From Lingula anatina (taxonomy: Eukaryota; Animalia; Brachiopoda), in contig CM120640.1 of NCBI GenBank assembly GCA_051362555.1, forward strand, positions 868,001 to 932,000: DNA of 64,000 bases, written 5' to 3'. Made by a program: the position numbers and the translations under genes. Numbering within the stretch: position 1 is the first letter of the stretch; each line of letters opens with the position of its first letter. The notes below the pieces were generated by a model that was not told the DNA's origin, ran no database searches, and was given only the letters and a program-made list of their open reading frames with translations. This document shows positions 36,338-61,659 of the stretch, in pieces.

Positions 36338-36342
36338 GATGT

Positions 36343-40454: not shown

Positions 40455-41149
40455 AAACTTTGTTTTTTAAACTAGATTTTAGCCACGTAGACATTGGAAG
40501 AGACTTTGATTACTGATATCACACTAATGACTTTAGAGTTTTTAAATCAAGAAACTTAGAAATTGGACTTGATGGAGAAAGTCAAAGTGACGCAAAAGAC
40601 TTTGAAATCTTTGACTTTGACGAGCATGTGCTATTTGTTTAATAGTTTTATGTTATTATTTATATATAGCTGTAGTTTTTGATATATATTATTATATCAA
40701 GGAGGGGAGAAATGTTCTAGAGAAAAGCACTTAAAATTTTTACCCTTGCACACTAAAAGCATTTTGAAAGACATTTCCCACTCAGTGACAGTTAAAGTGA
40801 AACACCTGTTGTTACAAGTACCTTTTTAATGCATTGTATTGTGGAAATAAAATAGAACTATCATAGAACAAAAGAGGAACACTTGTGCTTTAATTTTTAT
40901 TGCACTGGAGGATTAATCCAGAACATGGTTGGTCTTGGTTTTAGGTTTCCCCATATTGCACACCATCTTGAGTTGATGGGCTACAGAAGGGTCGACCTAC
41001 CGGTAGATGCTTTAAGACCTGATACAAATAGGCCTTCTCGCAAAAATGAGATCATGTTTTATACCATTTTAGTTATCTTTTCTCTCTCTCAATTAAAGTG
41101 GTCACGTGTGCCTCAGATGCCGTAAGCGTGCGCACGCTCCCGTTGACAG

Positions 41150-41257
41150 TAAAAAGTCCTGTCTTGCGTTATCAGCTACAGCGAGTGCGTTTGACACTTT
41201 GTTGGACATACACCAGTGCGGTGCATCTTTTCCCACCGTGTGGTTTCACCAGATAAG
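41150..41257 (+). promoter_or_regulatory. Putative core promoter and non-coding exon 1 of peptide gene A
   Basis: GCGAGTGCGTTTGACACTTTGTTGGACA..GGTGCATCTTTT..GTGGTTT..CCAGATAAG|GTAAATAT, donor at 41258. Homologous to the minus-strand first exons ending at 55002, 58002 and 60994. Confidence 0.65.
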
Positions 41258-42531
41258 GTAAATATCCTAGGCAGAAAAAGAGATGTAAGCTTTTTGTATG
41301 TATAGCTTTAATATAGGCCTACTTTTTCATAAATGGCAATGTATTGTTCAGTAACAGGAACACATTCATACATGGATGTCATACACATTCAGGCTAAAAG
41401 CGTGTAACATGTCTAGGAGCTAAATGCGTTGAAAAAATGAGACAAAACAGGCCCTTAGAAATGTGTTTAGAAGTTAAACACTGTTTTTATAATGTATGAA
41501 AGCAACTTGAGGGGATGATATACATGTACATTTGCTTCTTTTGCAACATGTCGATGTTTTGTAAAGAAAAGTATAACGCTTGGACAGGGATAAACTTTTT
41601 CGGACATTTTCTGTGGAACAAACGTTACATACGTTTTAGCCGTGACAGAAAGCTCCCCTGTGTTACAGTTCATATATTTATAAAGACATCCTTACGTCAG
41701 CGTGTGTTTGTGTTTTAGTTTGACCTTATTGAAATGGCATGTAATATTGTGATGGATTTTTATGAACAATTTTAGTAATTATGTACCTTGCAAACGTCCT
41801 CTCATTAAGCCTTGGCAGTAATTCTTATGATGGTACAGTGTAAGCCAGCTTAGAGCTGTGCAATGAAAGATAAATTCTTAGTGGACAGTAGAGAAAAATG
41901 TATAGAATTAGTCAGCTAAATGTATGTGGATATCTACATGTAGTTGTGCCTTTATTCGCCGGACCCACACACCAAAAGCATATTTAGGCAGATATTTCTC
42001 TGAAAAAAAAAATAATGCGTCACGCTTTAATAGCGCCTGACGTGATCACATGTTAAGCCTTTCAATGTTGTTATTTTACTGCTTGAAATAAATTTTAAAA
42101 ATGTTCCTGTATTTTTGATGTTGTAATTATACCACTTGAATAAAAATTGTTTCTGTCCTTTTGATGTTGTGAATTTTACCGCTTGAATTAAAACATTGTT
42201 TCTGTCCTTCCATACGTTGTTTTTAATGACTCCAGATGACAACCCTGCCATTTTAACTTTTGCAAAATAGCATTCATTATTTATGTACGTGATGGAGATG
42301 CAGCATTCAATGCTGGTAGCTTTGAAAACAAACTAGTCATATACTTTATATGACTTTGTCTTTTTATTTTGGTTAAAAAAATAAATGTTGCATACGTGAT
42401 ATAAGCCAGTTATTCAGCGCCGGTGGTGTTAGTACAACATAGTAAAAAAAATACAAAAGAAAATTGTGGTAAATTAAAATGGTAACAATTTAAAAAAAAT
42501 CCAGGATAAAGTTATAGGACGGGAATACAGC

Positions 42532-42566
<35 letters not shown>

Positions 42567-42812
42567 TCTTTGTCAGCATAAAGACCAACGAAGAAGTGTT
42601 AGAACTGCCTAGAGTACAACGCTCACTGACGAAAACACTCAGAAAAAGACAAATTAAATTTCAGGGCCATACCATCAGAAAAGACGGAATAGAAAAACTT
42701 GTACTCTGCGGGAAAATTGACGCCATTTGTTTTTTCTCTCTTTTTATTTTGTTCTGTTGAGCTTAATTCCGAATACAACTGCACTATACGTTTCTGTATT
42801 TCAGGGACGGCA

Positions 42813-43007
42813 ATGCAGATATTTACCCGTCCTGGCTGGGGGGCCGTAGTGTTTACAGTATTCCTACTGTGCACCTTCGCTGTTGGAGGCTACTCGTGCA
42901 TCTTTAATCCGCTGACCTCCAGATGCCTTGCAAGCACTTGTCGAACTGGATACCAGTGTCTTTTAACTGGGGGATATGTGTGTGGCTGTGTTGAAATAAC
43001 TGGCTGA
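42813..43007 (+). CDS. Small secreted cysteine-rich peptide A (64 aa)
   Basis: MQIFTRPGWGAVVFTVFLLCTFAVGG-YSCIFNPLTSRCLASTCRTGYQCLLTGGYVCGCVEITG; hydrophobic signal peptide, 6 Cys; acceptor TATTTCAG ending at 42804; AATAAA ~43083. Confidence 0.85.
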   Translation: MQIFTRPGWGAVVFTVFLLCTFAVGGYSCIFNPLTSRCLASTCRTGYQCLLTGGYVCGCVEITG

Positions 43008-43469
43008 CTGAATACCAGAATCTATTTCTGTTGACTTGACAATCTTTCGAACTATGGAGGGTGCTTCAGTGTATGAAGTTGCAATAAAATTAAATTGGCA
43101 CCACGTTCTTTGTGTTTGTATGTGTGTGAATATGTGTGTTTGTTGAAATGACAACAGTTTTCACTAATCCTTGATACTTTCAATAAAAACAAATTCAACT
43201 TCTAAAAATAAATTATTTTTGGCCCTAACTGTAGGCCTGATAATGAAGATAATATTCTATTGGTAACTGCATGCTGTACATATCTTAGGATAAGGAAGCT
43301 GACACATCGTTACTGGAAAACATAATATATTTTCTGCGTGATACCTATATTCGTGTTTGATTAAGAAGAAAGTTAAGTCATTCTATAACTGTGGTTTCGG
43401 CTGTGGCTGACGGTTATAAAGTTGTCAGCTGCCAAGTTCATCCTAGACATGCTCAATGGGTGACATGTC

Positions 43470-44908
43470 TGGTTTAAACGCTGGCCACGGAAGAGTCTGG
43501 ATCTGTTCCTGTATAGTGCAAAGGATCTATGGGACAATATCGCTCTTGTCACACAGTATAAAGGGTCCAGACGTGCCGTTGATACAGAGGACTCCACACT
43601 CCCTAACAAGTTGAATGAGTTTTATTCTCGTTTTGATAGGACCAACCACACTCAGGTCCACACACCAACCCTAGGGGAGCGCGTGCCGCCATTTAGCCTA
43701 CTATTCAATCATGGCAAGTCAAGTGTTATTTCTCGGCTTTAAACACCAGGAAAGCTCCAGGCCCTGACGGTATAACATCACGACTTTTAAAGGAATGCGC
43801 AGCCCAGCTTTCAGATGTGTTCGCGGAAATATTCAACTGGTCAATTGAAATGTGCAGAGTGCCTGAAATATGGAGGACAGCAACCATCATACCTGTGCCA
43901 AAAAGTAAAACTGTAGAGAATTTAAATGATCTCCGTCCTGTTGCTTTGACACCGGTGCCTATGAAGATATTCGAAAAACTTGTTTTGTCTTTTATTAAAA
44001 CTTAAGTACCAAATAGCTTTGATCCACTCCAATTTGCCTACCGCAGTAACAGAAGTGTAGACGATGCTCTTTCTATGTGTTTACACAAAGTTCTCGAACA
44101 TCTCGATTGTAAAAATGCCTATGTTAGAATTTTATTTGTTGACTATAGCTCAGCATTTAATACTATTGTACCAAGCAAATTGTATTTTAAACTTTTGGAT
44201 GATCTTAATTTTCCACCAGCACTCTGCGATTGGATTTTAGATTTTCTTTTAAACAGAAAACAGTCAGTAAAAGTCGGTTTTAACTTCTCGGACACTATAG
44301 TTTTAAACACTTGCACACCCCAGGGCTGCGTCTCATCACCTTGTTTATATACGTTATTCACCCACGACTGTGTGGCGAGGGAGGAAAATACATTTTTAAG
44401 GAAGTTTGCCGATGACACAACTTTAGTCGGCTTGATACACCATAATGATGAGATGTCATACAGGCAGTCGGTTACAAGTTTAGTAAATTGGTGCACAGAC
44501 AATGACTTGATATTAAATGTGAGCAAAACAAAAGAAATGGTCATAGACTTCAGAAGAAATCAGATAAGTAAAAATCCCTTGGAAGTTAACGGTAAAGCGG
44601 TCGAACAGGTTTCTAATTATAAATTACTAGGGGTTCAGCTGAATAATAGGTTAACCTGGGGCGATAACATCACGAAGCTATTGAAAAAGGCACGTCAACG
44701 AATGTATTTTTTTACGGAAATTGAAAGCTTTTACCAGAAATGTGTTTATTTTAACGAACTTTTACAGGTGTGATTTAGAGAGTATTTTAACTTATTCAGT
44801 AACTGTTTGGTATGGACATGCAACTGTGGAGGAGAGGAACAAGTTGGAAAAGATCGTCGAAACTGCAGGGATTGTAATTGGAACAGATCTAACTCCCGTC
44901 AATACTTT
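43470..44908 (+). mobile_element. Rex1/Babar-like LINE, 5'-truncated and degenerate (5' part)
   Basis: LPNKLNEFYSRFD, KAPGPDG, NDLRPVALTPVPMKIFEKLV, DPLQFAYRSNRSVDDA, YVRILFVDYSSAFNTI, KFADDTT, LNVSKTKEMVIDFRR; stops and frameshifts; resumes at 50905. The 5' boundary is approximate. Confidence 0.88.
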
Positions 44909-45104
44909 TTTTTTTTTTTTTTTTTATTCACGAAAATTAATACAAGACATGTACAACACAATAAGAGACAAATACACCTTCCACACACCATTCACACACT
45001 ACAAACGAAGTTCTTACAAATGTTGATTAAAATTACATGTAGAATTTTTTTTTTAAATAAAAGAATCTTATTAGGCCTAGTCTACAACAAATGTTCTTTT
45101 TTAT

Positions 45105-48100
45105 TCATATCAATATTTTTTCTATACTGTCCCATTTTTTCCTTAGATTATCTGCCTTTTGAGGACCCAGTAGGTATAAAGATTGAAAATCTATTATCTT
45201 TTGCTTTTCCAAATACTTTTTGCAGGCATTCCAAAGAGGTGTACTTTTATTTTGTCTACATAAAGTGAAATATTTCTTTATATAGAGAAGTAGTAGATTA
45301 ATACCTAAGAGAGGGCTGTCGTCCAGGATTCCAAATATAAACAAGCACGGTTGATGTTTTAATTCAACAGAGTACTGTGTACGTAGGTTCTGAATGAGAC
45401 AAGTCCAAATAGCTTGAACATATGTACAGTCCCAGAAAATATGCAATAAAGTTTCTTTTGGGTCATTACAGAAAGTGCATCGCTCATGTTCTAACATATT
45501 GTATTTAAAAAGCATCGAGTTCGTAAAATAAATTCTATGTAAAATTCTAAATTGCAATGTGAGAAGTTTATGATCATTGGTTTCTCGAAAGGGCAATGCA
45601 TGAACTAGCTTCCACTTTTCACTTGGAAAATCAATGTTCAGCTTTTCCATCCACTTATTATGGATGTTAAGAGGTATTGCTTCCTTATCCGAAATAAATT
45701 TCGGGTAAAAGAGTTTCGTTAATTTGTTTTTCGATTTTAATAATACGAGATTTTTATTTGTTATTGCTGCAAGATTCTTTTGACACCCTCTTATAACAGT
45801 TTTCCAGGCAGAAGGTAAAGCGCTGATGACGGCTTGATAGTCAAGGAAATTACAATCTATATTATATTCATCACAAAAAACGTCTAGACTTTTTACTGAA
45901 CCAGTATTATCAATCAGGTCATTAACGTAAAGCACTCCTTTTCGAAACCAAGGTTTATAGAAGATTATCTTTTTATTAATCTTAATATGATCATTTCCCC
46001 ATAAAGGTTGTGCTAGGATATCATCCGGAGAAGTAGTAGAAAATTCTTGCACAGAAGCCCATATTCCCAAAATCTCTTTCCAGAAAGTATTTAGTATATT
46101 AATATTGCGTATAGACTGTAGGCCCTTCGAGGGAAGTAGCAATACGTCAATTCCCCCGATTTCCGCAATCTCATCCATCAAAAGAGTTTTCCACGAAGAA
46201 TAATTATGTGGATTTACCAATTTCTTTAGCCATATCAATTTAAGAGCTTTACAGAAGGATTTCACCTCGGGGACCTTTAATCCACCGTTTTCATAAGAAT
46301 TAATCATAACATTTCTCTTAACTTTATCTATTTTACTGTTCCAAATAAAGCGATAAAAAACTCGCTCCAAATCTTAAAAAAAAAGATCAGCAGGCATAGG
46401 AAGGACAGTTAATATTTGGATGATGGTAGGGAGTGCCAAGGATTTTAAAATAGTTACTTTACCTAGGAGTGAAATGTGACGGAACGACCAATCATTTAAC
46501 AACGATTTGATGGAATGTAATTTTTCTTTAAAATTTTCTTCATAAATGTCATCCTTTGCTAGGTTATACCAAATACCCAGTAGTTTAAATTTCCCACTAT
46601 GATTCCAAAATATACTTTTAGAGGTTTGATACTCCTCACCACAGCAGCGCTTTGCTCCAATCCAAACAGCCTGGCTTTTTTCAAAGTTTATTTTCAATCC
46701 TGAACATTGAGAGAACAATTCTAGCATATCCAGAGCTGCATTCAATGACTCTCTATCATCTGCTAGATGAAGCGTAGAGTCATCTGCGTATTGTGTAATG
46801 ACGTATTCTGAGTTATTCAGTAAGATCCCTTTTATGTTTGGATCAAATTTGACCGCCGCGCTGAGCAATTCTATGCAGATAATAAATATGTAAGGGGACA
46901 GAGGATCACCCTGTCTAACACCCCGACTGACATTAAAGAATTCTGTTAGATGTCCATTATTTTCCACTGCAGTGGAAACATTGGAGTAAAGGGTTTTGAA
47001 CCAGTTTTGAATATCTTCAGTAAAATTAAAAAATTTAAGACACTGCAAAATATATGCCCACTCTACAGAATCAAAAGCTTTTTCGAAATCTAGCATTAAT
47101 AAAATTCCTGAAATGTCATCTTTTTCTGTTTTATGGATGATATCTTGAATAGTTCTGGAACATTCGCCTATATACCGACCTTTAACAAATCCAGCCTGTG
47201 TAAAAGAGATTATATCGTCAATGTGTAATTGGATTCTGGCTGCTATGCAAGCAGAAGCAAGTTTGTAATCAACATTCAGCAAAGTAATTGGACGCCAATT
47301 CTTAAGGAATACTTTCTCCTTCCCCTCTTTTGGTATACACTTGATTATACCTTGGCGTTGAGATGTAGACATTGACTGTACCTCAAAGGATTTATTCAGT
47401 GACCTAAGCAGAGGCTCTTTAAGATCAGTCCAAAAGAATTTATAGAATTCTACCGTATAGCCATCTAAACCAGGAGATTTTCCATTCTTCATTTTCTTAA
47501 GTACTTTGAGACATTCTGTTTGGGACAGAGAGCCATTCATAGTAATCTTTTTTTCTTCTGGAAGTTTTTTAATAAATGGATTTTCGTCATTGAAAAAGGT
47601 ATAACTATGGACGTTATCCATTAGAGTGTCTTTTGATTGGTATAAATCGCTATAGTAGCTTTTTTGTTCTTTTAAGATATCGTGAATATTTGTTATTTCT
47701 TTTCCGTCCTTCCTCCTCAATTTAGATATCGATTTCTCACAATAATTCCTTTTTTCTAAATTAAGAAAATATTTTGAACTTTTTTCTCCTTCTACTTTCC
47801 ATTTTGCTTTTGCCCTTAAAATAATCCCCTCAATTTTTTTGTCACGTATACTTTTCAATTCATCTTCTTTTCCCCGAATTGCCAACCGAATAGTCTCATC
47901 ATCTCTGTTGTTTAGAGAGTCATATAATTTGTTCAATTCTTCACTTATTATTTTTTCTTCTTTTTCTGCTTCTCTCTTTTTATAGGATGCGTATTTAATC
48001 GTTTCACCTCTAATACTAAATTTTAAGGTTTCCCATAGTAAACAATCGTCAATATTAAATTCGGCCATTTCCACGTTTTCATTATCGTCTGTCCTGTACT

Positions 48101-48911
48101 GCTTTATCACTTCTTTTATGGTTTTTTTAATTAAGTTTACATAATTCCAATCGCCTAACAGACTGTTGTTGAATTTCCACGTCCCCCTTCCTCTTTCAAT
48201 TTGAATAAAATTAATCTCCATGTTTACTGGAGAGTGGTCTGATTTATAAGCAAAATCCATGCCAGCAGCAACAGCTATGTCTTGTAAATCAGAAGAAATC
48301 AAAAAATAGTCAAGTCTGCTTTTTTTCTTATTTGGTCCAAACCACGTAAATTTTCTACATTCCGCATTCATTTCTCGCCAGACATCAATTAAATCCAAAC
48401 TGTCCATTATGCGGACAATTTCTCGGTTTGCCTTTGTGTTGTTGTTGTGTAGGTAATTATCGGTGTCAGTTATGTAATCAAGTGGTACGTTCCAGTCCCC
48501 CCCAAGTATTATTGAGGTATTTCCAATTACTTCAATTTTATTTTGGATCTCCTTAAAGAAAGACGGATCGTCATTGTTTGGTCCATAAATAGCGCCTAGC
48601 GTGAGTCTCGTGCCCTGAATTTCAATGTCTAGTAATAGGTAACTACCTCTAGGATCTTTAATCTCTTTGTGGATTTTAAAGTCAAAGGAAGATTTGAATA
48701 AGATGCCAACACCTCTTTTGCAACTAGTTAGTGAACAAAAAACCGCGTCCCCACCCCATTCATTTTTCCACAAGCTTTCGTTTTTCTTCTCACTGTGAGT
48801 ATCAATCAATATAGCGATGTCATATTTGGACCTGCATTTATGAAAAATATCTCTCCTTTTCACCATATTGCTACTGAGTCCTCGACAATTCAGACTTACT
48901 ATTTTAACCAT
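45105..48911 (-). CDS. L1/Tx1 ORF2 (APE endonuclease, RT, CCHC), with one in-frame TAA at 46374-46376
   Basis: SLNCRGL, GAIYGPN, GGDWN, SRLDYFL, SDHSPV, GKSPGLDG, NWRPITLLNVDYK, DFEKAFD, GVRQGDPLSP, QYADD, CTFC..ETLLHIFWDC. The two track ORFs (48911-46374, 46370-45105) are in the same frame. Confidence 0.93.
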
Positions 48912-49605
48912 TACTTAGAATCTAATAATAAATATTTAACCAATAAAAAGGACGATACTTCCGCAAGTAGTCTAGGCATTATCAACACGTAATTATAAAC
49001 ACATACATTCACCCATTCACACAAATCGACACCACAGACAAACATTAAAGGTACAACACTGAGTGGTAAACACATATATCAGGAGGCCTCCTCTTCGGAC
49101 AGCTGTTGCCTATCCTGCGAATGATAGCATGACTACATACAGTACAAACAGGAAAACCCCTCTGTCTCTGCAAAAAACAATGTTCATGTAATTATCCAAT
49201 ATTTACACAATCTCATTTTCGTATGTGTAGATTTTTTTTTTTTAAGAATTGGCGTAATGAGTTCAGGCTGCAGTAAAGCCATCCGTTACTCTTTTACATA
49301 CATCCACTAAGTTTCATATATATCAGGTCTTTCAGAGAGGTAAACAGTAAACACATAGTAATCTAGAGAAATGACATATAGTTTCTATACCAGTGGCACA
49401 GTCGTACCTCCAGACTGTAACAGTATTCAAGGGGGTACGTAAACTACTAAACAATATATCACATACCAGTATCAAGAGAGAATTCATATAGTTTCCACTA
49501 GATCCAATCTCCTCCTTAAGTAATAAAGCATATTTGTATAGAAGGAGAATGGAATGTAACTCATCATATATTGGTTTTTAATCAAAATATATTTGGTTTA
49601 ATGTT

Positions 49606-50541
49606 TTATTTTCTTATTTTAACTTTCTTGTCAATGTCATCGTCAATAGAAAATCTCATTCTCTGGCCAGTGTGTTTCACTTTACCGTACACGCTCCCAT
49701 TATAAAACCACGACTGTTCAATTTGCTCGTTTTCCTTTAGGCGCTGCAGTAATTGAGCGTTTAGCTTGGTAATATCGTCAGCCAGCCGAACACCTTTGTC
49801 ATGCCTTTTCAAGGTAGATCTACTCCGCATTATACGTACCTTGATTTCCGTGTTTTTAACATGCATTAGAATTGGCCGGGGAGACCCTTGCCGACCGGGA
49901 ATTCTGTGCACCGCCGTGATGTCATCAGCCGTTATCTGTACTTCTCCCTGTTCCTTAAGCACCTTGCACACAACATCCCGAGTGTTTTCATGTTCCTTCT
50001 CTATCACCCCGTAGATTTTTATGTTATTTTTCCGGGAATATTGTTCATTATAGTTCGCCATTTTGATAGCATTGTTTGACGCATAGTTTGCTTGCTCCAC
50101 TGTTTCCGTGAGCTTTCTGAGAGACTTTTCTTTTCCCGCTAGCTGTTCTCGGAGAGCGTCATTTTCCAATTCCAGTGAATCGATTCTTTCCCTTAGCTCT
50201 CCAATATCTAATTTATGCTTGTCTTCTAATTTTTCAAGATTTGTCCCGATTTCGTCTTTGAAATTAAGTAAAAGTTTAGTGACAGTTTCCGTGACCATTT
50301 CTTGCACAATATCTTTTAGATCATTTGTTTTTACAGTATTTTTGATTTCAGATTCTATTTCGTCTAGCTTTATCAAAATCAAAGATGTTTCTTCTGTACT
50401 TGTGTTAGAAACCTCACTATGGGATCTTTTTGCTGGCTGACTGGTGGATTTCTTGTCAGCTGTGGTTTTCATTCGGTCTGTCATAGAGCTCTTTGAATCT
50501 TTGATCGTATCAAAGTATTTTGATTTATTATTTGAGCTCAT
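49606..50541 (-). CDS. L1/Tx1 ORF1 (coiled coil plus RRM-like region), likely start MSSNNK at 50541
   Basis: Coiled coil followed by NEQYSRKNNIKIYGV..AVHRIP..PRPILM..LADDIT, typical of transposase_22-like LINE ORF1 proteins. Confidence 0.88.
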   Translation of the reverse strand: MSSNNKSKYFDTIKDSKSSMTDRMKTTADKKSTSQPAKRSHSEVSNTSTEETSLILIKLDEIESEIKNTVKTNDLKDIVQEMVTETVTKLLLNFKDEIGTNLEKLEDKHKLDIGELRERIDSLELENDALREQLAGKEKSLRKLTETVEQANYASNNAIKMANYNEQYSRKNNIKIYGVIEKEHENTRDVVCKVLKEQGEVQITADDITAVHRIPGRQGSPRPILMHVKNTEIKVRIMRSRSTLKRHDKGVRLADDITKLNAQLLQRLKENEQIEQSWFYNGSVYGKVKHTGQRMRFSIDDDIDKKVKIRK

Positions 50542-50904
50542 TGTGATATATATATAGAGAGATATGTGTTTTCGAGGCAATAAGGCTGACTTGAAACTAT
50601 TGTTTATCCGGTGAGCAGTACTCACCGATGCACCTGTATTGAAGCGCACTTGTCACGATCTATTGTCAGTTGTATAGTTATGGTATACGTTATGATCAAT
50701 GTCAAAATAAAGCTTGTTGACAAAAACCAAGTCAGCTAAACAGCTTCCATTCGCAGGAGACAGTTAGTATTCACACATTTATGTATCCATAGCTGTAATA
50801 TTTCTTACCGATTGTTTGAATTTGTAAGAAATTCTAGGAGCTCTCTTACGGTCGTTGTCTCCTCCTTGGCCTCGTTCTCGCTTCCAGTCCCCCGTCAATA
50901 CTTT

Positions 50905-51190
50905 ATATATCTAGACAGGACTAAAAGAAAACATTATCAATAATGACAGACAGTTCCCATCCAGCCCATACCCTTTTAAATTTTTACCTAGCAATTCGAG
51001 ACTCTTAGCTTTTAAGGGTAGTAAGCGATTTTCAAATAGCTTTTATCCTTCGGCAGTAACTATTTTTAACTCTAACATGTAATTTTAATTTTCATTCTTT
51101 ATATTTCAATGGCGCTACTACAGGGCAAAAGATTCCCGATTTTATACATTTGTATTTTATTGGCTTAATAAATTATTATTGTTATTATTG
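50905..51190 (+). mobile_element. 3' end of the Rex1/Babar-like LINE
   Basis: Continuation YLDRTKRK..MTDSSHPAH..RFSNSFYPSAV, then AATAAA and a (TAT)n-like tail at ~51167-51190. Confidence 0.75.
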
Positions 51191-52613
51191 CTGTAGGCCC
51201 AGCTGTGCCATCCTGGCAGTATGGGGACGGGTGTTGACTGAAGGACTGAGAAGGTGTTCTGTCACTGAAAAACTTCAGACACCATACTGACTAACATGTG
51301 CATTTTCGGTCAGTTTGAAGCACTGTGGTAAAAAAAAACTTACATTTCTTTTCTTTTTAGGCCAGTATATGTGTATGTTACATGTACGTGCATGTATACA
51401 TGTAACAGGAGGGGATGACATACAGTTGCTTTTACTGCAGCGTGTCCATGTTTTATGAAGACAAATATAACGCTTGGACAAGAATAAACTTTTTTCAGAC
51501 ATTTTTCTGTGGAACAAACGTTAGATACGTTTTAGCCATGACAGAAAGCTCCCCTGTGTGACAGTTCATATATTTATAAAGACATCCTTACGTCAGCGTG
51601 TGTTTTTGTTTTAGTTTGACCTTATTGAAATGGCATGTAATATTGTGATGGGTTTTTATGCACAATTTTTAGTAATGATGTACCTTAAAGACCATGCAAA
51701 CGTCCTCTTATTAAGCCTTGGCAGTAATTCTTATAATTGTAAGCCAGCTTAGGTACTGTTTAGCGACAAGCTGTGCATGGAAAGATAAATTTTCAGTGGA
51801 CAGTTCAGAAAAGTTTGTAGAATTAGCCAGCTAAATGTATGTGGAAATCTTGTTGTGCCTTTATTCTGCCCCCTGTTCCCTGGACCCACACCCCAAAAGC
51901 AATTTTAAGCAGAAATGTCTCTGGAAAAAGAAAAAACAGACAGTATGCGTAAACCTTTAAGAGCGAATGGCGCGATCAAATGTTTAGCCTTTTGATGTTG
52001 ATATTTTACAGTTTGAAATAAAAAAGTTTCTGTCTTTTTGATGTTGTAAATTTTATCGCTTGAATCAAAACATTGTTTTTGTCGTTCCATACGTTGTTTT
52101 AATGACTTCGGATGACAACCCTGACATTTTCATTTTTGTAAGATATCATTCATTATTTATGGACGTGATGGAGGTGCATAATTCAATGCTGGTAGCTTTG
52201 ACAACAAACTAGTAATAAATAACACTCTGTGTTTTTATTTTGGTAAAAAAAGAATTGTCACATACGTGATATAAGTCAGCTATTAAGCGCAGGTGGTGTT
52301 AGCACTATATGATAAAAAAAATTAAATGGAACCGAAACGGGACATTTTCAACAAAATCCAGGATAAAGTTATAGGACAAGAATACAGCTGTTTTTTTTAA
52401 AGCAATGAAGAAGAACTAAATTACTAAGAAAAAGACAAATCAAATTTCTGGGCCATACGGACAGAAAAGACGGAATAGAAAAACTTGTACTATACAGGAA
52501 AATTGACGCCATTTTCTTTTTTCTTTCTGTTTATTTTGTTCTGTTGAGTTTAATTCTGTATACTTTAGCTTACAATCAGCTGCACTATAGCTTTCTGTAT
52601 TTCAGAGACGGTC

Positions 52614-52826
52614 ATGCAGATATTTACCCGACCTGGCTGGGGCGCAGTAGTATTTATAGTATTCCTACTGTGCACCTTCGCTGTTGGCTGCGACTCTTGC
52701 AGATATAATCCGCTGACCTATAGCTGCTTTCCAAGAACCTGTCCACTTGGATACCTGTGTCGTTTAACCTGGGGTTCTTATTCTAAAGGCCAGTGGAAAT
52801 ATCTGTGTGGTTGCCGTAAAAACTAA
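52614..52826 (+). CDS. Small secreted cysteine-rich peptide B (70 aa, cationic)
   Basis: MQIFTRPGWGAVVFIVFLLCTFAVGCDSCRYNPLTYSCFPRTCPLGYLCRLTWGSYSKGQWKYLCGCRKN; paralogue of A with homologous intron (51420-52605) and 3' flank. Confidence 0.85.
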   Translation: MQIFTRPGWGAVVFIVFLLCTFAVGCDSCRYNPLTYSCFPRTCPLGYLCRLTWGSYSKGQWKYLCGCRKN

Positions 52827-53530
52827 GTATCTGGCTGACTGAATACCAGAATCTCAGCTTCTATATGTATAACATTGAAGCTATTAAAATAACATTTCTG
52901 TTGGCTTGACATTCTTTGCGATTATACGTTGTGCTACAGTGTTGCTATAAAACAAAATTGGCATGGTATTCTTTTCTTTCTTTTTTTCCTCTTTTTGTGT
53001 GTTTGTCGAAAGAACAACGTTTCATTAAACCGCGATAATTTTAATCTTAAAAGAAGTAACATCCGTTCCTTACTGTAAGCCTAATAATGACGATGCAATT
53101 AAATAAGTAACTGCATGCTGTACATGTCTCAGATTATTTAGCACTTATAAAGAAGTTGGAAAAAATTTAAATGGGAATCTTCAATCTGATACTTATATTC
53201 GTGTTTTATTAAGCGGGAAATTAAGTCATTGTATGGGGGACAATTAAAGGCCGACCCAACTACCAGACTCCGCACCGAAGGATCCTGAATTCACCGGCAG
53301 ATCGGACCACACTACCAGTCATCAAGGTGTGCGTCAGTATGAGCTTCGATGTATCATACGCGACACAGCTCTTGCCGAGTACGCGACATGATAGTTATGA
53401 TTCTCAGTGGGGTTGGAATGTATTACATCACCACTCAAAATTTGTTCCGGGGTATAACACTGTGAAATGCGCACTGAGGCACACCTTGAAAACGGGTAGT
53501 GTGGTCCAATCTACTTGTGAACCAGCTCAG

Positions 53531-53642
53531 CTGTGCCCTGAATACCCCACGGCGTAATTACGGGCAGGAGCCAGTTGCTTCCAAAGCTGTAATTACTTCT
53601 CGGCGCTGCCAGTAATTACGCCGCGGGGTATTCAGGGCACAG
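53531..53642. repeat. 112-bp inverted repeat / small MITE-like hairpin
   Basis: CTGTGCCCTGAATACCCCACGGCGTAATTAC ... GTAATTACGCCGCGGGGTATTCAGGGCACAG (~31-bp arms, one mismatch); no TSD seen. Confidence 0.7.
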
Positions 53643-54360
53643 ACCGTGATCACAAGATACCGCATATAGATTTTTAGATTTTTAGAAAATAGATTTTTCA
53701 TTTGAACGGTCCCTTAGTAAGTCACAACCTGTGGTTAGAACATTAACATCTCATCCCCAGAAATGCACTGCATGACGTCACGCTTAGTCCACTGCGCATG
53801 CGTGCACTTTTAATGAGTTGCTAGATTGCCATAGGAAAATGAATGGGTTCGCGATTCGTGTGTAATTCGTGATAATTGACAAACTAACGGCCTGATGCCG
53901 ATAGACAGCAACGCTGTGCTATGCTTCAAGGCCACCTGACCAAATATCGCTAGCGTTTTTAAAAAAATAAATCTGTTGTACACACGTACTAAGAAGTTTG
54001 CCGTGTATTGCCTAGCCTACCCTCAGCAAAACGTACATATTTTCAGAAATAGTGATTTTAGACGGTAGATTCACTCAGAAACAAAGGCAAACTAATTCGT
54101 TGCCGATAGCACCAGCAGATAGCAGCACCATACAGAGTCTGATTAAAAACTTTCATGGCAATTGAAGAACTTTTACCACTGTACATCATCATTGCTCTTC
54201 GTCCCGCGTGGGACATAAGGCCACTTACCACTGTACAATGGAATATAAAAAAAGCACTTGGCACAAATGTGAAAGAAGATGGCTCCTGATGATTTGCAGA
54301 GTCATTCACTCGGAATAGTTAGAAAAAGAAAAAGAGGTTCAGTGACAAGTTTTAGGACCG

Positions 54361-54576
54361 TTAATAATAATCATAAATACATTCGCAGTTATATGTCGCC
54401 TTCCCGGTGGCGTAGGAAATCGAGGCAATCTGACACTGTTTACCCCCGGTACACGAGCCGACATATTTGTTGGTCTGCGGGTCCAAGGAACAGGCCTCAG
54501 CCAAGGTGCACAACATGCTGAGCTGGTACACCGTTAGCAGAAGTATTGTCAGAGCGAATAGAAAGGACCTTGGCAT
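54361..54576 (-). CDS. Small secreted cysteine-rich peptide C (71 aa; Cys2 replaced by Tyr)
   Basis: MPRSFLFALTILLLTVYQLSMLCTLAEA-CSLDPQTNKYVGSCTGGKQCQIASISYATGKATYNCECIYDYY; acceptor TTTCACAG before 54584; non-coding exon 1 ends at 55002 (AAG|GTAAAT). Confidence 0.85.
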   Translation of the reverse strand: MPRSFLFALTILLLTVYQLSMLCTLAEACSLDPQTNKYVGSCTGGKQCQIASISYATGKATYNCECIYDYY

Positions 54577-56208
54577 GGTTGTTTCTGTGAAATATGAAGG
54601 TTGAACATGTTAACAGGCCAAGGTTATTTCGGGGTTCTCTAAGCGGTACAGATTAGACATGAATAAGAAAATAAAAGATTGTTTTTTAAAAATAACTTTT
54701 TTACTTTTTTTACCCTTCAGAACACTCTGCTAATTTATTCATACTGTTTTGACATCATTTCAATCAACTTTATTTCAAAAGGCAAGGAATCGTACATCTT
54801 GGAATATTGGAATTTCTATATGACTTGGATCCTTAGAATCTGTTTTCATCTGAATCTTTTGAAACATAAACCACCCAGTGGTCTATCATAATGGTCTATC
54901 ATTTATGTCATTATTCTCCCACCTTTACATGTATCATATGTACGAACACCCCCCCCCCCACCCCCATCTCCGACAACAAATTAGTAAAATTGCATATTTA
55001 CCTTGGCTGGCAAAACCACTCGGAATAGTTAGAAAAAGATGCACCTCGCTGGACCTGTGTCTAACAAAACTATTAAACTGACTCGCTTCATCCCAGGGAG
55101 TGGGTTTTTTAATTATCAACAATATTGGTGTGCGCATGCTCAAAACTTGTCGTGGCACAGGTGGCCTCTATTCAAATGATGACAATAAATTAACTGACAC
55201 TTTTTATTTCTTTCACGCCTTAAAAGATACACTTTTGCTAACTGTCGTTCAACCACTTTTTATTTCTTTCATATCTAAATCGATACAATTTTGCAAATTG
55301 TCATTTAACCATCATTTCAAAACTGGCTCTTTTGTTTGAATATGGCACACGTCGCTGTTAAACCAGCAGATAGTATGATTTTTTTTATACCTAAAATGCA
55401 GAAAAACTGACACGCGTACGAATAATTCTCTTCAAATCCTTTGCCATTTTATTTATCTGCAAAAGTATATGAGGCAAGGCTCAACTCCGACTTCAATGAG
55501 TCATAACCAGTCGTTAAAACATTAACATTTTAAGTCATTATGGCTTTTTTTTAGAAAATATTATTATATGTGGATAAAATGAAATTGTAGTGTTTGAATT
55601 GTCTGTGGTTTAATAGAAAGAGACACATCAACCGGTGTTAAAAATTCGTCATCTTCATCGTCTTCACACAGGTTATACTTTGCTTAGTTTTAGAGAAGAA
55701 ACAATAAAAAACAAAATTACTATTTTGAACCCAAATATACTACCGATAAATTTGTCACCGAGCATATAATCTGGACATTTCTGTAGCCAATCTTATTCCA
55801 CACCTTTTCAATACGTTTCCCAAAAGTTGCTCAAACTACACTTATCTAGGTATCCAAACTATTCATTTACTGAGTATATATCATGCCTCATAATTGAGGA
55901 AATGATTAAAAAGTACTGAACACTATGTTAATGCTTGTGCATTTTATTAACGTGAAACCTGATACACTGATTGCAGTTCTCGTGAGAACTGAAAGCCCCG
56001 GGTTCGGGATCATCCTTATGTCTCTCAATCAATCAATCCAGTATTTCATGTCATGGTTCTGCTTATTTGCTCTAAGTATATGTGAAAACTCACGGATAAA
56101 TAATTCAGTTTGCATCATATGTGACAGGGTTATATCGGATTATAGAGGGTTCCGCCATAAGACTTCTGCCGTGGACGTCCCCGGGGTCAGTGACAACTTT
56201 CAGGACCG

Positions 56209-56430
56209 TTAATAATGATAATAATTATACATACACTCGCAGGCATATGTCCACCTCCCGTTGGAGTAGGTAGCCGATCCCATGTCACACTGTTTACCCC
56301 CGTCACACGAACCGACACATTTGTTGGTCTGCGAATCCATGGAACAGGCCTCAGCCACAGTGCACAACATGCTGAGCTGGTACACCGTCAGCATAAGGAT
56401 TGTCAGGGCGAATAGAGAGGACTTTTGCAT
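56209..56430 (-). CDS. Small secreted cysteine-rich peptide D (73 aa)
   Basis: MQKSSLFALTILMLTVYQLSMLCTVAEA-CSMDSQTNKCVGSCDGGKQCDMGSATYSNGRWTYACECMYNYYHY; exon 1 ends at 58002. Confidence 0.88.
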   Translation of the reverse strand: MQKSSLFALTILMLTVYQLSMLCTVAEACSMDSQTNKCVGSCDGGKQCDMGSATYSNGRWTYACECMYNYYHY

Positions 56431-56959
56431 GTTTTTTTCTGTGAAATATGAAGGTTGAATAAGTTAACAGTACAAGTTTTGTGCTTTTTTAAGCGGTACA
56501 TGTTAGCTATGAATAAGAAAATAGCGATGAATATTGTTCTTTAGAAATAACTATTTTTTTTTACCCTTTAGAACACTATTTTGTTTATACCGTTTCGATA
56601 GCATTTCAGTCAACTTTATTTCAGAAGGTCCTGTTTCAGATAAAAACAATGAATCCTATATCTTGGAATATTGGAATTTGGCTATCACTTGGATTGTTGG
56701 AATTTGTTTTCATCTGAATATTTCGAAATAGAAACCACCCAGTTATAGTCCAAGATGATTATCCCAACCACACAGAACACAAACCAACCGAGAGGACAAA
56801 CCAGCGAAATCAAATGCAATTCCCATTGAGTAATTAATAGAAAGACATTTTCAGACAAGGTTTGGTGAATCCTTACACAATAATGATCTACTGCAAGGTG
56901 CCTTCATGACACAATTTATGATAAGAAGTGCAGTATGGCCGCTTACATCAGTAAAAATA

Positions 56960-57720
56960 AAGAGCCGATTTCTATGGTCTTAAAAAACCTCTAAATTATC
57001 CACTGTCCTTGGCAAAGGTCAAATGGAGAGGCTTGTCCATGCCTTCAGAACTTTACATCTTGACTACGGAAACAGTTTACTGGTCTTCCTACCAACCAAA
57101 TTGAAAAACTGGAATCTGCCCAAAATGCTGCAGCACGACTACTTACCAAAACCCCTCTCAGATCAAACATTTCACCAATTTTATTCGAACTACATTGGCT
57201 TCCCGTGCGACAGAGATTTGTTTTTAAATTACTGCTGTTAGTTTTTAAATTCACCAGAGTTGGATGCCCTTCATATTATAACTCTATGCTACATCTAGGT
57301 TCAGCCAATCTCACCTGGTTCACCAGATCCACCTCCACTCTTTGTTTTACCAGGAACGATAACAAAAAAGAAATAAAAAACCTAAACCACAGGGCATTTT
57401 CAATCGCAGCACCCATTTTATGGAATGACCTACCCTCACACATTTGGGCTATTGGTAGTGTTGAATTAAAAAAAATACTTGAAAACATTCTTATTTGCTC
57501 AGTATTTCAATTAAAATTTAATACTTGAAAGTATCTATTTTATTGTTCAGACTATTACTATTTTAACCAGAATTAATCATTTTAATTGTTTTATTTACAT
57601 TAGCTTAGATTTATTTATATAATTACTTGTAATTCTGATAATTTTATTTGTAAACAGCACTAAGATGGTAGTGTAGTGCGGCGTTTAAGAAATAATAATA
57701 ATAATAACAATATAATAATT
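56960..57720 (+). mobile_element. Degenerate 3' fragment of an L2/CR1-group LINE in the intron of peptide gene D
   Basis: ERLVHAF..LDYGNSLL, AQNAAARLL, LHWLPVRQRFVFKLLLLVFK, RAFSIAAPILWNDLP; (AAT)n tail ~57691-57718. Confidence 0.82.
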
Positions 57721-58556
57721 CTGATGGAAATTCATCTGTATATTATTATTACGTGGCTAACCCATAACATACTGATAATGACAAGAGATCGCTCTCTATG
57801 TTAGAACAATCCATCTATCTATTTCTGTTTTTATCCGATTCATTTTTATATTTTCTTCTTTCCAAAAATATCGAATTGAGAAATTCAGCAAATTTAAGTG
57901 TTTATACCCCTTACTTTATGTGTCGTTACTCCCCCTCCTGTAAATGTATGTACGGGTAACTCCCCCTCTCCGATAACCAATCAATAAAACTGCATATTTA
58001 CCTTAGCTGGTAAAACCACACGGAGCAGGTAGAAGAAGATACGCCTAGCTGGACCTCTGTCTAACAAAACTGTTAAACTCACTCGCTTTATCGCAGGGAG
58101 TAGGTTTTCAATAATCAGCAATATTGGTGTGCGCATGCCCACAATTTGTCATAGCACACGTGGCCTCTATTCTAATAATGAGAATAAATTAACTGACACT
58201 TTTAATTTCTTTCACGCCTTAAAAGATACACCTTTGTTAGCTGTCATTCAACCACTTTTTATTTCTTTCATGCCTGAATCGATACAATTTTGCAAACTGT
58301 CATTAAACCATCATTTCAAAATTGGCTCTTTTGTTTGAATATGCCACACGTCGCAGTTAAACCAGCAGATAGTATGAAATCTTTTTTCTTTATCTGCAAA
58401 ATTACATTAAAAATATGAAAGCCATCTGATTTTTTAGGTATCGATACTACTAGGTATTTCCGGAGGGGGGATTATAAACGTTCACATCACTTCCCCTTGT
58501 CGTGTGGAAGTTAAGATATTTCAAAAGAAGACAATATATCTAAGAGGTATTCAAAT

Positions 58557-58682
58557 GATGGTGACTCGTGTATCTTTAATCAGCTGGCCTCAAGATTCCT
58601 TGAAAATAGGCTACTTGTGGAACTGGAGAGTAGTGAATTTTTATTGGGAGATGTGTGTGGCTGTCGAGAAATATCTGACTGA
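58557..58682 (+). pseudogene. Pseudogene fragment of an A-type cysteine-rich peptide (no signal exon, frameshifts, stops)
   Basis: GACTCGTGTATCTTTAATCAGCTGGCCTCAAGATTCCTTG..ACTTGTGGAACTGGA..GTGTGTGGCTGTCGAGAAATATCTGACTGA aligns to the mature-region DNA of gene A; the 3' flank 58765-59085 matches 43025-43385. Confidence 0.8.
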
Positions 58683-59815
58683 CTGTATTCCAGACCCTGG
58701 ATGCTGAATCGCAACATCTAATCTAACATCTAATATGCATAACTTTTAAGCTAATTAATATCTTCTTTCTGTTGACTTTACAATCTTTGCGACTATGGAG
58801 GGCTGCGCAGTGTATGAAGCAATGAAAAAATAAATTGACATCACGTTCGTTTGTGCGCGCGTGTGTGTGTGTGTGTTAAAATAACAATTTTTTCACCAAC
58901 GCTTGATAATTTTAATTTTAAAAAAATTAACTTCTTAAAATGACTTATTTTCGGCCCTAACTATAGACCTGATAATGAAGATAATATTCTATTGGTAACT
59001 GCATGCAGTGCGTGTCTTAGATTTACTGCGGGATACCTATATTCGTGTCTAATTAATCGGGAAAATTACATCATTGTATGGGGGCATTTAGGTATATGAG
59101 GCAAGGCCCAACTCCGGCCATATTGATTCATAACCAGTCGTTAAACATTTTTAGTCATTATGGCTTTTTTTTTAGATAATATTATATTATATGGATAAAA
59201 TGATATTGTAAGCGGGTTTCGGGTTGCAGAATTGTCTGTGGTTTGATGGAAAGAGGCACATCAACTGGTGTTAAAAGTTCGTCATCTTCATCGTGTTATA
59301 CTTTGCTTAGTTTTAGAGAAGAAACAATAAAAACAAAATTACTATTTTGAACCCAAATATACTACCAATAAAATTGTCACCGAGCACATAATCTGGGTCT
59401 ATCTGTAGCCAATCTTATTCCACACCTATTCAATACGTTTCTCAAAAGTTGCTCAAACTGCACTAATCTAGGTGACCAAACTATTCATTAAGTGAGTCTA
59501 TATCATGCCTCATAAATGAGCAAATAATTAAAAATACTGAACACAATGTTAATGTGTACCATTTATTAGCGTGAAACCTGATACACTGATTGCAGTTCTC
59601 GTAAGAACTGAAAGCCCCGGGTTCAGGATAAGTTTAATGTCTCTCATTCAGCCAGAATTTGATGGTTCTCTTTAAGTATATGTGAAAAACTCAGGGGTAA
59701 ATAATAAAATAATACAGTTTACATCATATGTGACTGGTTTATATCGTAGAGTGTTCAGCCATAAGACTTCTGCCGTGGACGTCTCCGGGTTCAGCGACAA
59801 GTTTCAAGACCGTTA

Positions 59816-60031
59816 CTAATAATGATAAATACAGTCGCAGTTATATTGATACTTGGTCCAGGTGATTAAGGTAACCGAGACAACCTTACACTGTTTACCG
59901 TCGGTACACGAACCGTCACACTCGTTGGTCATCGGGTCAAAGGCACAGGCCTCAGCCTCAGTGCACAACATGCTGAGCTGGTACACCGTCAACAGAAGGA
60001 TTGTCAGGGCGAATAGAGAGGACCTTGGCAT
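59816..60031 (-). CDS. Small secreted cysteine-rich peptide E (71 aa)
   Basis: MPRSSLFALTILLLTVYQLSMLCTEAEA-CAFDPMTNECDGSCTDGKQCKVVSVTLITWTKYQYNCDCIYHY; likely true ATG at 60031 after acceptor TTTTACAG; exon 1 ends at 60994. Confidence 0.88.
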   Translation of the reverse strand: MPRSSLFALTILLLTVYQLSMLCTEAEACAFDPMTNECDGSCTDGKQCKVVSVTLITWTKYQYNCDCIYHY

Positions 60032-60509
60032 GGTTGTTTCTGTAAAAGATGAAGGTTGAACATGTTTACAGGACAAGGACATTTCGGGCTTTTTTTAAGC
60101 GGTACAGATTAGATATGAATAAGACAATCAAATATTGTTCTTTAGAAATAACAATTTTATTTTTACCCTTCAGATAACCCTGCTATTGTATTTATACCGT
60201 TTTTATTATTTATAACGTCCTGTTTGAGATGAAAACAATGAATCCTACATCTTGAAATATCGGAATTTAGTTGTAACCTGGATTCTTGGAATTTGTTCCA
60301 TATAACATGAGCCAACCTGCCGCTTCAAAGATTTTTGCACATGTAATGTGGACATTCATGATCCCGTGGTTACCCCACAGTATACTGATACTGACAAGAC
60401 ATCGCTCTCTATGTGAAAACAACCCATCTACCTATTTCTGTTTAAATCCAATTAATGTCTATATTTTCTTCTCTTCATAAAATCAAAATCAGAAATTCAG
60501 CAAATATAA

Positions 60510-60714
60510 AGGGATAACAACCGTTCGTAAAATACCTATTTCTTTCACTGTAAATACATTGTAAATAACTCACGGAAATGCAAGGAATTCGATTTTACCC
60601 CCCAAACGGCGGTTAAAACAATTGGTTTGGAATTTGTGCTTGCCTTTGGAATTTGTCCTCCATGGATGGCTACGATATATAATCTCGTAACAGATCATTA
60701 CAAAAAATCTTTAG

Positions 60715-60764
<50 letters not shown>

Positions 60765-60884
60765 AGGAACTAATTTTGAATGTGGGAATGGATTCATTTA
60801 CCATTGCTAAGTATGGAATAACTGCCTTTACCCCAGGAAAATTTTTGGAAAATTTTTGGGCCAAAATGAACAGTTGTTATCTCT
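60510..60884. mobile_element. Kolobok-like non-autonomous DNA transposon in the intron of peptide gene E
   Basis: Termini AGGGATAACAACCGTTC / GAACAGTTGTTATCTCT at a TTAA-like site; absent at the equivalent position of paralogue D (CAAATTTAAGTG, ~57889). Superfamily assignment is tentative. Confidence 0.6.
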
Positions 60885-61659
60885 TAAAGTGTTTATTCTC
60901 TTTACATAGCATGTCGTAATTCTCCCACTTGTACATATCTGTACGAGTAACACCCCTCTCTCCGACAACCAATCAGTAAAACTGAATATTTACCTTAGCT
61001 GGCAAAACCAATCGTAACAGGTAGAAGAAGATGCACCTCGCTGGACGTCTGTCTAACAAAACTGTTAAACTGACTCGCTCTATCGAAGGGAGTGGGTTTA
61101 AAATAATCAACAATAGTGGTGTACGCATGCTCACAACTTGTCATAGCACACGTGACCTCTATCTTAATAATGAGAAACAATTAACTGGCACTTTTTATGC
61201 TTTCACACCTTAATCGATACAATTTTGCAAACTGTCATTAAACCATCATTTCAAAACTGGCTCTTTTGTATGAATATGGCACACGTCGCAGTTAAACCAG
61301 CAGATAGTAAGAACTTTTAAAACCTAAAATGCAGAAAAACTGACACGCGTACTAATGGTTCTCTCCAAATCCACTGTCTTTTTCTTTATCTGCAAAACTA
61401 CATTGAAAATGTGAAATCCATCTGATTTTTTAGCCACGAGGTATTTCCGGGGGAAATTATAAACATTAACATCACTTCCCCTTGTCGGAGGGGGGGGGGG
61501 GGATAGACATTTCAAAAGAAGAAAATATATCAAATAGGTATTCAAACTTTGCAACGTGTAATTAATGAGCAGAAAAATTAGCATTATGAAGATAAAAAAA
61601 AATATTGCGTAGAGATCCCTGTTACGTTAAACCCATCGAAAATAGAATTTTTACTAGCC

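Follow-up and report, generated by a model that had tools for sequence, protein, structure and literature searches.

The 64,000-nucleotide stretch of the Lingula anatina genome analyzed here (hereafter the window) has 37% GC, introns, retroelements and a CIP2A gene, and is animal DNA. It contains a cluster of five genes, named A to E, which encode small, likely secreted, cysteine-rich peptides. Genes A and B lie on the plus strand. The coding exon of A (42813..43007) encodes 64 amino acids with a cysteine spacing of 8-4-5-7-1 and a net charge of +1, and that of B (52614..52826) encodes 70 amino acids with a spacing of 8-4-5-15-1 and a charge of +7. The remaining three lie on the minus strand: C (54361..54576; 71 amino acids, charge 0), D (56209..56430; 73 amino acids, 8-3-5-15-1, with the motif C-V-G-S-C, charge -1) and E (59816..60031; 71 amino acids, 8-3-5-16-1, C-D-G-S-C, charge -2). 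Every frame is open from ATG to stop, and re-reading of the sequence found all five complete at the places given by the original prediction, whose three loop-4 sequences were also reproduced exactly. The six-cysteine framework that it ascribed to the whole family is present in A, B, D and E, but C has five cysteines in this assembly; a Tyr occupies the second cysteine slot, the first of CXGXC, while x-G-x-C and CxC are kept.

Counted from the first cysteine (Cys1), the peptides are 36 (A), 42 (B), 43 (C), 45 (D) and 43 (E) residues long, so that the mature length of 38-45 residues first reported is corrected to 36-45. The distance from Cys1 to Cys6 is 31-39 residues across the family, with A, the shortest member, at 31. 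One extra cysteine is found in B, at residue 26, and a spare cysteine would exist only there and only with the leader cut before that residue. A scan of all six frames of the window for the six-Cys framework returned 4 occurrences, every one inside the cluster, as against none in 100 block-shuffled windows. No further family copy was found in the window by tBLASTn beyond a fragment at 58566-58676. Signal peptides were assessed by hydropathy alone, and the leaders are hydrophobic (best 11-residue Kyte-Doolittle mean 2.6-3.2). The residues A-E-A stand immediately ahead of Cys1 in C, D and E. A dibasic site before Cys1 is absent in the family peptides, and therefore no propeptide is predicted. 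With a charge of +1 or lower and 3-7 aromatic residues, A, C, D and E are unlike membrane-lytic peptides.

Each gene has a single coding exon, with an AG acceptor 8 bases upstream of the ATG. A homologous non-coding exon 1, with the donor AAG/GTAAAT, is common to A, C, D and E and ties the two subfamilies together at the DNA level. Exon 1 of A (41185..41257, plus strand, start approximate) was located by alignment with exon 1 of C, D and E, and the donor and acceptor of its intron (41258-42804) were read from the sequence. On the minus strand, exon 1 of C (55002..55081) has an approximate start, inferred at an initiator-like TCAGT, and is followed by an intron of 417 bp (54585-55001) that is seen as an RNA joint in sequencing run X7. 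Exon 1 of D (58002..58085, start approximate) was placed by alignment and by reads of run X4, that of E (60994..61073, start approximate) by sequence and by X7 reads, and the introns of D (56439-58001) and E (60040-60993) by sequence. Alignments bore out the conservation of flanks, introns and leaders described earlier.

Gene B differs in its upstream part. The 3' part of a family intron lies ahead of it (51392..52605, plus strand), ends at the AG acceptor and shows 76% identity to positions 41492-42542 of the A intron by BLAST. B thus retains the last ~1.2 kb of the intron without exon 1. No match to exon 1 of A was found in 43401-52400, a segment holding retroelements, and the family donor motif occurs on the plus strand only at A. 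B may be silent, may have its own new promoter, or may use exon 1 of A. Since its acceptor is present and it has no exon 1 of its own, B is possibly an alternative last exon of A, joined by a splice from 41257 to 52606 on the plus strand across 11.3 kb. The pseudogene originally placed at 58557-58682 is indeed a decayed A-like copy, although it has neither a start codon nor a leader. It retains, at 58564..59020 on the plus strand, the 3' half of a coding exon of A type (to ~58694) together with the 3' untranslated region; identity to 42892-43288 is 78-80%, and the coding part has indels.

Searches of sequence collections agree with the earlier view that the family is unrecognized. None of the 5 mature peptides matched a Pfam family at E<=10; the precursors matched none of the Pfam families of PDGF/VEGF, TGF-beta, DAN, glycoprotein hormones or NGF, and neither precursors nor mature peptides matched a Pfam toxin family. 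NCBIfam, searched with three of the five precursors, returned no family (best E 0.17), and the family profile reached at best E 0.27 against PDB sequences, where the matches, such as CP12 and nanobody loops, were chance-level or partial. Two further PDB sequences, a C3H1 zinc finger (E 0.0011 across 18 positions only) and the centipede peptide RhTx (E 0.035), were set aside as matches of the same partial or chance-level sort. In the ESM Atlas the top score of 0.80 lies inside the range of shuffled proteins. A profile of the five precursors, run against proteins of 35-128 amino acids, left 0 of 5 candidates at E<=0.1. Among 1.84 billion representative proteins no animal relatives were found, and the 2 matches at E<=0.001 were both multi-repeat proteins of ENA assemblies. 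A match named P0002 (E 2e-4) was discarded, its cysteine repeat being of a different kind. In JGI metagenome contigs none of the candidate stretches (131 and 107) held up. Because small peptides of animals are sparsely represented in these collections, the failure to find animal relatives is weak evidence of their absence. No family emerged from collections of 5.8 billion and 15 billion entries, and none of the five exact sequences occurs among the 15 billion proteins, suggesting that these are genes of a kind that annotation misses. The open literature, covered mostly at the level of titles and abstracts and exclusive of subscription papers, gave no account of the peptide family or of a prokaryotic growth-factor knot. 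The three leader motifs were found in none of the open-access papers searched, and an archaeal domain survey (PMC13607799) holds 0 occurrences of "cystine" or "knot". The peptides are thus lineage-specific as far as searched, as originally proposed, but the cysteine module is not, since look-alikes exist in prokaryotes.

Transcripts were examined in 4 of 9 RNA runs, mapped to 54150-56800 (2651 bases) only; this segment takes in the C coding exon, C exon 1 and the D coding exon region, with the exons of A, B and E and the pseudogene outside it. Over the C and D coding exons run X1 had zero depth, and X2 contributed about one read pair, which lies on C. Depth was 1-4 over the coding exons in X7 and reached 37 over D in X4. 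The X4 library is strand-specific, its first mates falling on the plus strand, consistent with minus-strand RNA in most libraries. The splicing of exon 1 to the coding exon, part of the original prediction, was seen in RNA for the C/D/E subfamily. In X7, 3 reads with 2 different starts skip the 417 bases of the joint 54584-55002, which has GT..AG ends, and other joints lead from the acceptor at 56438-56440 to exon-1 sequence. Another 4 X7 reads carry a 29-base piece resembling exon 1 of E fused to a coding exon, and the first 19 bases of this piece map solely at 60996. In X4, 25 reads cross from a D-like start codon into exon-1-like sequence.

D-like transcripts are present in both X4 and X7. 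In X4, however, 68 of 97 reads are just 90-95% similar to the window. Of the differences from D, 29 are listed (31 further rows are unlisted): the 3' untranslated region and the mature part hold 13 each and the signal 3, with 0 in cysteine codons; 8 of the 13 mature-part differences change the amino acid when each is taken singly, and 15 of the 29 match the E base and 13 the C base. These differences indicate that the X4 transcripts come from a further copy or a strongly diverged allele and not from D itself. The C exon has RNA reads at low depth. X4 and X7 reads on C were dropped as evidence for C itself, for they differ from C at many other positions and probably derive from D/E-like transcripts. 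At the second cysteine codon the single C-like X2 pair matches the other copies; going by this one pair, the Tyr of C may be an allele of the sequenced individual or an assembly error. At 54150-54238 reads of all four runs pile up, loose at either end; the pile was rejected as a short dispersed repeat (54184-54227). Taken together, the family is almost certainly real and expressed.

The rate of change was compared for the pairs A/B, C/D, C/E and D/E, the mature part being taken as its non-cysteine codons. The ratio of nonsynonymous to synonymous divergence (dN/dS) in the signal was 0.19, 0.41, 0.19 and 1.43, respectively, the last resting on one silent change, and in the mature part it was 1.14, 1.84, 2.34 and 1.79. 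The proportion of nonsynonymous differences (pN) in the mature part was 0.31, 0.24, 0.30 and 0.33, against 0.05-0.09 in the signal and a divergence of 0.11-0.15 in homologous non-coding DNA. In all 4 pairs the mature part shows more amino-acid-changing divergence than the signal (p 0.016 to 0.00013), as the original prediction had it, and mature pN also exceeds homologous non-coding divergence (p 0.0066 to 3e-7). Positive selection finds support in the C/D/E subfamily, where synonymous divergence and the non-coding baseline agree (p 0.5-0.6). Gene conversion of the flanks could lower the non-coding baseline.

The sequence offers a first indication of the fold. The combination CXGXC plus CXC is the signature of the growth-factor cystine knot, according to PMC12203953, and D and E carry exactly CxGxC and CxC. 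The original prediction had weighed the cysteine-stabilized alpha-beta (CS-alpha-beta) and epidermal growth factor (EGF) folds and judged that neither fits; the likely fold, to which CxGxC...CxC points, was missed. The predicted ring has 8 residues in C, D and E and 9 in A and B. Known members of the growth-factor-knot class have rings of 8, 10 and 14 residues, and the 9-residue ring of A and B therefore stays compatible.

AlphaFold2 gave the E precursor a predicted local distance difference test score (pLDDT) of 76.7, with 84-85 over the mature core, and mature B a score of 84.9. In both models the mature part is predicted to contain four strands, arranged as two hairpins, and to lack a helix. 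A set of 48,161 chains was searched by full structural alignment with the models of mature B and of the E precursor. Among the 26 rows listed for B, chains of the cystine-knot growth-factor superfamily fill 23, the first 20 among them, with 41-43 of 44 residues aligned. The best match was NBL1 (Z 4.0, root-mean-square deviation (rmsd) 4.3, 43 aligned), followed by matches such as glycoprotein hormone alpha (Z 3.5), PDGF-B (3.3), VEGF (3.0) and TGF-beta2 (2.9), and also GPA2/GPB5, gremlin, norrin, the von Willebrand factor C-terminal knot, activin, GDNF and noggin. With E, knot chains make up 15 of the 22 rows listed and take all of the first 11 places (best Z 3.6, rmsd 4.2, 48 aligned). The aligned ranges of B were 24-107 in VEGF, 14-101 in PDGF-B, 8-87 in hormone alpha and 13-112 in mini-TGF-beta2, where we take the first and last knot cysteines to be 26/104, 16/99, 10/84 and 15/111, respectively. 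With these numbers, and assuming ungapped ends, the range ends would put Cys1 and Cys6 of the model on the first and last knot cysteines.

The weight of the fold call is in the near-uniform membership of the match lists and the whole-length coverage of the models, not in the scores. On this basis the peptides probably adopt a growth-factor cystine knot. The pairing I-IV, II-V and III-VI, with I-IV passing through the ring, is suggested by the whole-length alignment to knot chains at Z 2-4. The fold class is thus likely that of the growth factors, yet no known sequence family of that class was matched. When 66 Foldseek matches were re-aligned, 3 reached Z 2, and 2 of these were GPA2/GPB5 knots. 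The prediction of a homodimer of mature D yielded no answer (score 0.01, mark 0.32).

Modules of like spacing were found in prokaryotes. P0001, the top match among the 1.84 billion representatives (summed E 3.3e-6 from 5 stretches), contains repeats with the same cysteine spacing as the peptide family. Its relatives in two Methanomicrobiales genomes (loci L001 and L002) are proteins of 693 and 723 amino acids with a leader and five repeats, to which neither Pfam nor NCBIfam gives a name. At both loci (L001 1813-3894, L002 1726-3897) the gene encodes two unnamed kinds of cysteine repeat, an N-terminal C-P-x-G-C-x-C type and the six-Cys knot-like type, and is followed by the same two genes, for a small membrane protein and a ~247-amino-acid methyltransferase-like protein (labeled by eye). 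A joint profile retrieved 103 proteins among 6951 candidates of 84-2000 amino acids. Methanoregula, Methanosaeta, Altiarchaeales and Bacillota are named among them, and most are unnamed metagenome proteins, mostly methanogen-like. Together with P0001 they hold 366 modules, spaced 7/8-3-5/6-15 to 18-1 with a Gly in the heel, and 363 of these contain CxGxC. The proteins are of secreted type; each carries one to ten modules and is up to 1778 amino acids long; a hydrophobic N-terminus was seen in 64 of 76 proteins of at least 500 amino acids.

A profile built from the prokaryotic modules only scored A at 10, B at 18, C at 31, D at 29 and E at 31 bits, scores matched by 0-1 of 1000 shuffles with cysteines fixed and by 0-5 of 1000 with cysteines and glycines fixed. 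Ranked by this profile, the 1552 frames of the window have C, E, D and B at the top and A in 13th place. The prokaryotic proteins were found using the animal peptides as query, and ~30 bits are not significant against billions of sequences. The prokaryotic repeat resembles the family in cysteine spacing, CxGxC and heel glycine but differs in that its modules lie inside long proteins; the likeness is one of spacing and profile and would fit shared descent as well as convergence on a minimal knot. It is a speculative idea, and in our estimate an unlikely one, that the stand-alone 31-39-residue six-Cys knot goes back to an ancient module which prokaryotic surface proteins and animals inherited in common, predating the metazoan growth factors and turned here into fast-evolving, target-binding mini-ligands. 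Its prokaryotic bearers would then be methanogens, some Bacillota and Altiarchaeales. PMC4079206 traces the cystine-knot growth factors of metazoans back to early animals.

The reading that we favor, if only slightly above even, is that of a tandem two-exon family of secreted, stripped-down growth-factor knots, whose hypervariable loop 4 binds changing foreign proteins, most likely in defense. Tandem duplication has given two-exon genes for small, likely secreted peptides. Processing is predicted to remove a leader of ~26-28 residues at Cys1 or immediately ahead of it and to involve no propeptide, after which Cys1-4, 2-5 and 3-6 would pair and the 1-4 bridge would thread the ring of C-x-G-x-C and C-x-C. 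In the predicted result loops 1 and 4 are hairpins, the first short and the second long, accompanied by a heel of five residues. Loop 4, the longest and most variable, may form the binding face together with the aromatic C-terminal tail, and duplication with selection on this face would produce a set of specificities. The near-neutral or acidic charge of 4 of the 5 copies favors specific protein binding over membrane lysis, with cationic B as the exception, while birth and death of copies together with selection suggests an arms race, most likely with microbes or parasites. Binding of a specific protein target under an arms race is considered reasonably likely; defense against microbes or parasites as its arena is plausible but somewhat short of even.

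Several observations weigh against this reading. A and B have C-x4-C without the ring glycine and so depart from the CXGXC signature. The models were built from alignments of 5 sequences and have predicted template modeling scores of 0.44-0.49, and AlphaFold may mis-pair cysteines in peptides of this sort (PMC12203953). All Z values lie between 2 and 4, with an rmsd of ~3.3-4.7 A for B, and the tool warns that a Z below 8 may mean a common arrangement only; Foldseek, run against both models, gave no match at E<=0.001 (best E 1.6). With regard to selection, mature dN/dS does not significantly exceed 1 when judged by synonymous sites alone (p 0.07-0.51), and the three C/D/E pairs share branches and are not independent. 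Synonymous divergence of A/B (0.26) exceeds the non-coding baseline of 0.125 (p 0.013), and hence A/B shows relaxation only; diversifying selection has support in C/D/E, from pN against non-coding DNA, but not in A/B. In addition, MgCRP-I peptides of Mytilus, which evolve in a similar manner, had no antimicrobial or toxic activity when made, according to PMC4558851.

Other explanations for the same observations were considered. The fold call may be wrong, the peptides being instead a permuted EGF-like or a reduced three-finger or Argos-like module. Weak Foldseek matches to EGF-family chains (E 3.5-8.9, 21-23 columns) and to uPAR, the three-finger toxin MT7 and Argos (E 1.6-8.1), with Argos at Z 2.4-2.5, point in this direction; but these are partial or rank below 20 growth-factor knots, and the CxGxC glycine is kept in almost all prokaryotic modules of the same spacing (363/366), so that this alternative appears improbable. 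Membrane-active antimicrobial peptides of defensin type, CS-alpha-beta or beta-hairpin, would account for the C-x3-C and C-x-C spacing of D and E, for the charge of +7 and the aromatic, cationic loop 4 of B, and for Atlas neighbors such as scorpion short toxins, termicin and nodule cysteine-rich peptides (0.75-0.80). Those scores are nevertheless within reach of shuffled proteins, the defining helix is in neither model, 4 of 5 copies have a charge of +1 or lower, and cationic B has no exon 1 of its own; of the explanations discussed, this one is given the least credence.

Where the fold is kept, the target may differ. Gamete-recognition or pheromone peptides of the same fold, serving reproduction or chemical communication, would agree with the neutral to acidic charge, with the action of growth-factor knots as receptor ligands, and with sample-restricted expression, for X1 showed none over the coding exons, X2 about one pair and X4 a depth of up to 37. 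Tandem birth and death, a pseudogene and a possibly promoterless copy are, from general knowledge, more typical of defense, and a reproductive role is rated as a minor possibility. Toxins of venom or chemical defense, aimed at the receptors or channels of prey or predators, would form a parallel to the sigma-conotoxins: conotoxins typically combine a conserved signal with a hypervariable mature part, and the closest small growth-factor-knot peptide found is a venom 5-HT3 antagonist. Against this, the family has six rather than ten cysteines, no propeptide and no toxin family match, and coverage is modest in the 4 runs examined of 9, although a gland may be unsampled. A toxin function is considered still less probable than a reproductive one. 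Binding of changing foreign proteins in defense remains our preferred reading.

Several other features were found in the window. Between A and B are a broken reverse transcriptase fragment (43697-44773, plus strand) and a near full-length element on the minus strand (45105-50652), presumably of L1/Tx1 type; the domain matches of this segment (43697..50652) are RVT_1, Exo_endo_phos and zf-RVT. The minus-strand element comprises an ORF1-like part (49606-50652), an endonuclease-reverse transcriptase part (46374-48914) and a zf-RVT part (45105-46373), all on the minus strand. Its second open reading frame is split at ~46373-46374 beside a homopolymer run, possibly a sign of a young element or an assembly slip. 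Two nested long terminal repeat (LTR) retroelements, presumably of BEL/Pao type, occupy 28186-40454, with a 1782-amino-acid frame on the minus strand (30681-36029) inside a plus-strand element. Repeats of 288 bp (29890-30177 and 36050-36337) are 100% identical, and repeats of 218 bp (27938-28155 and 40713-40930) are 99.5% identical. A CIP2A-like multi-exon gene lies at 8675-13734 on the plus strand, its exon 8675-8920 matching Pfam CIP2A_N (E 1.7e-7). Tandem arrays with a ~146-bp unit are found at 19333-20085 and 21601-23192, with up to 98% identity between copies, and exon-like frames of a minus-strand gene at 16437-16790 and 25227-26216 have no Pfam match.

Small defense and venom peptides mostly have inhibitor-knot, CS-alpha-beta or defensin folds. 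In CS-alpha-beta defensins and scorpion short toxins, CxxxC lies in an alpha-helix joined to CxC in a strand; the mature parts of the E and B models contain no such helix, which places the family outside this group as far as the models go. In EGF-like domains CxC is followed by a sixth cysteine ~8 residues on, whereas in the family CxC is the last cysteine pair and the chain ends 2-8 residues later; EGF-family Foldseek matches were partial, at E 3.5 or worse over 21-23 columns. The short heel resembles that of PDGF and VEGF. More generally, the cystine-knot growth factors (PDGF/VEGF, glycoprotein hormones, GPA2/GPB5, the DAN-family proteins NBL1 and gremlin, TGF-beta/GDNF and norrin) resemble the family in six knot cysteines, a ring glycine and two hairpin fingers, the last as predicted for the family, judging from PMC3328748 and PMC4079206. 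The known families of this superfamily act as dimers on cell-surface receptors. The matched growth-factor chains are, however, 86-140 residues or more in length, compared with 36-45 in the family, which moreover has no Pfam match, no extra or interchain cysteine except possibly in B, and rapid diversification in place of conservation.

In its mode of evolution the family is close to MgCRP-I of Mytilus, described in PMC4558851 as lineage-restricted, duplicated, six-Cys secreted peptides with a conserved leader, a positively selected mature part, low expression and a function not established. MgCRP-I has a C-C-CC-C-C array, a pro-region with a dibasic (KR/RR) cut and four exons (PMC4558851), whereas the family lacks the adjacent CC and the pro-region and has one coding exon. 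The family evolves like conotoxins and MgCRP-I but falls outside both.

The nearest analogue is sigmaS-GVIIIA, of the framework-VIII S-superfamily conotoxins, a ~40-residue secreted growth-factor-knot peptide with CXGXC and CXC, whose 2025 structure was reported as the first of an invertebrate venom peptide with this knot (PMC12203953, on which the following details of the conotoxin also rest). Its knot (Cys6-25, 11-36, 15-38) spans 33 residues, more than the 31 of copy A. The structure, 9EBE, was not among the structure matches listed. The peptide is a venom 5-HT3 antagonist; its modified residues and venom origin set it apart from the family. It has ten cysteines in five disulfides against six cysteines here, which separates the family from framework VIII, and loops of 4-3-9-10-1 against 8-3/4-5-7/15/16-1, compared by description and not by sequence alignment. 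Its loop between knot cysteines IV and V is variable and a predicted receptor contact, and loop 4 of the family may be the equivalent.

As far as searched, the present peptides would represent a miniature growth-factor-knot family with six cysteines only, not previously described, the fold being predicted. If true, they provide a direct test of the minimum required to tie a growth-factor knot, and their loop 4, naturally 7 to 16 residues long, suggests a tolerant scaffold for binder design. The prokaryotic repeats of the same spacing raise the question of the origin of this knot. The family would then stand beside sigmaS-GVIIIA as a second and simpler case, with three disulfides, ~40 residues and no propeptide, and easily made.

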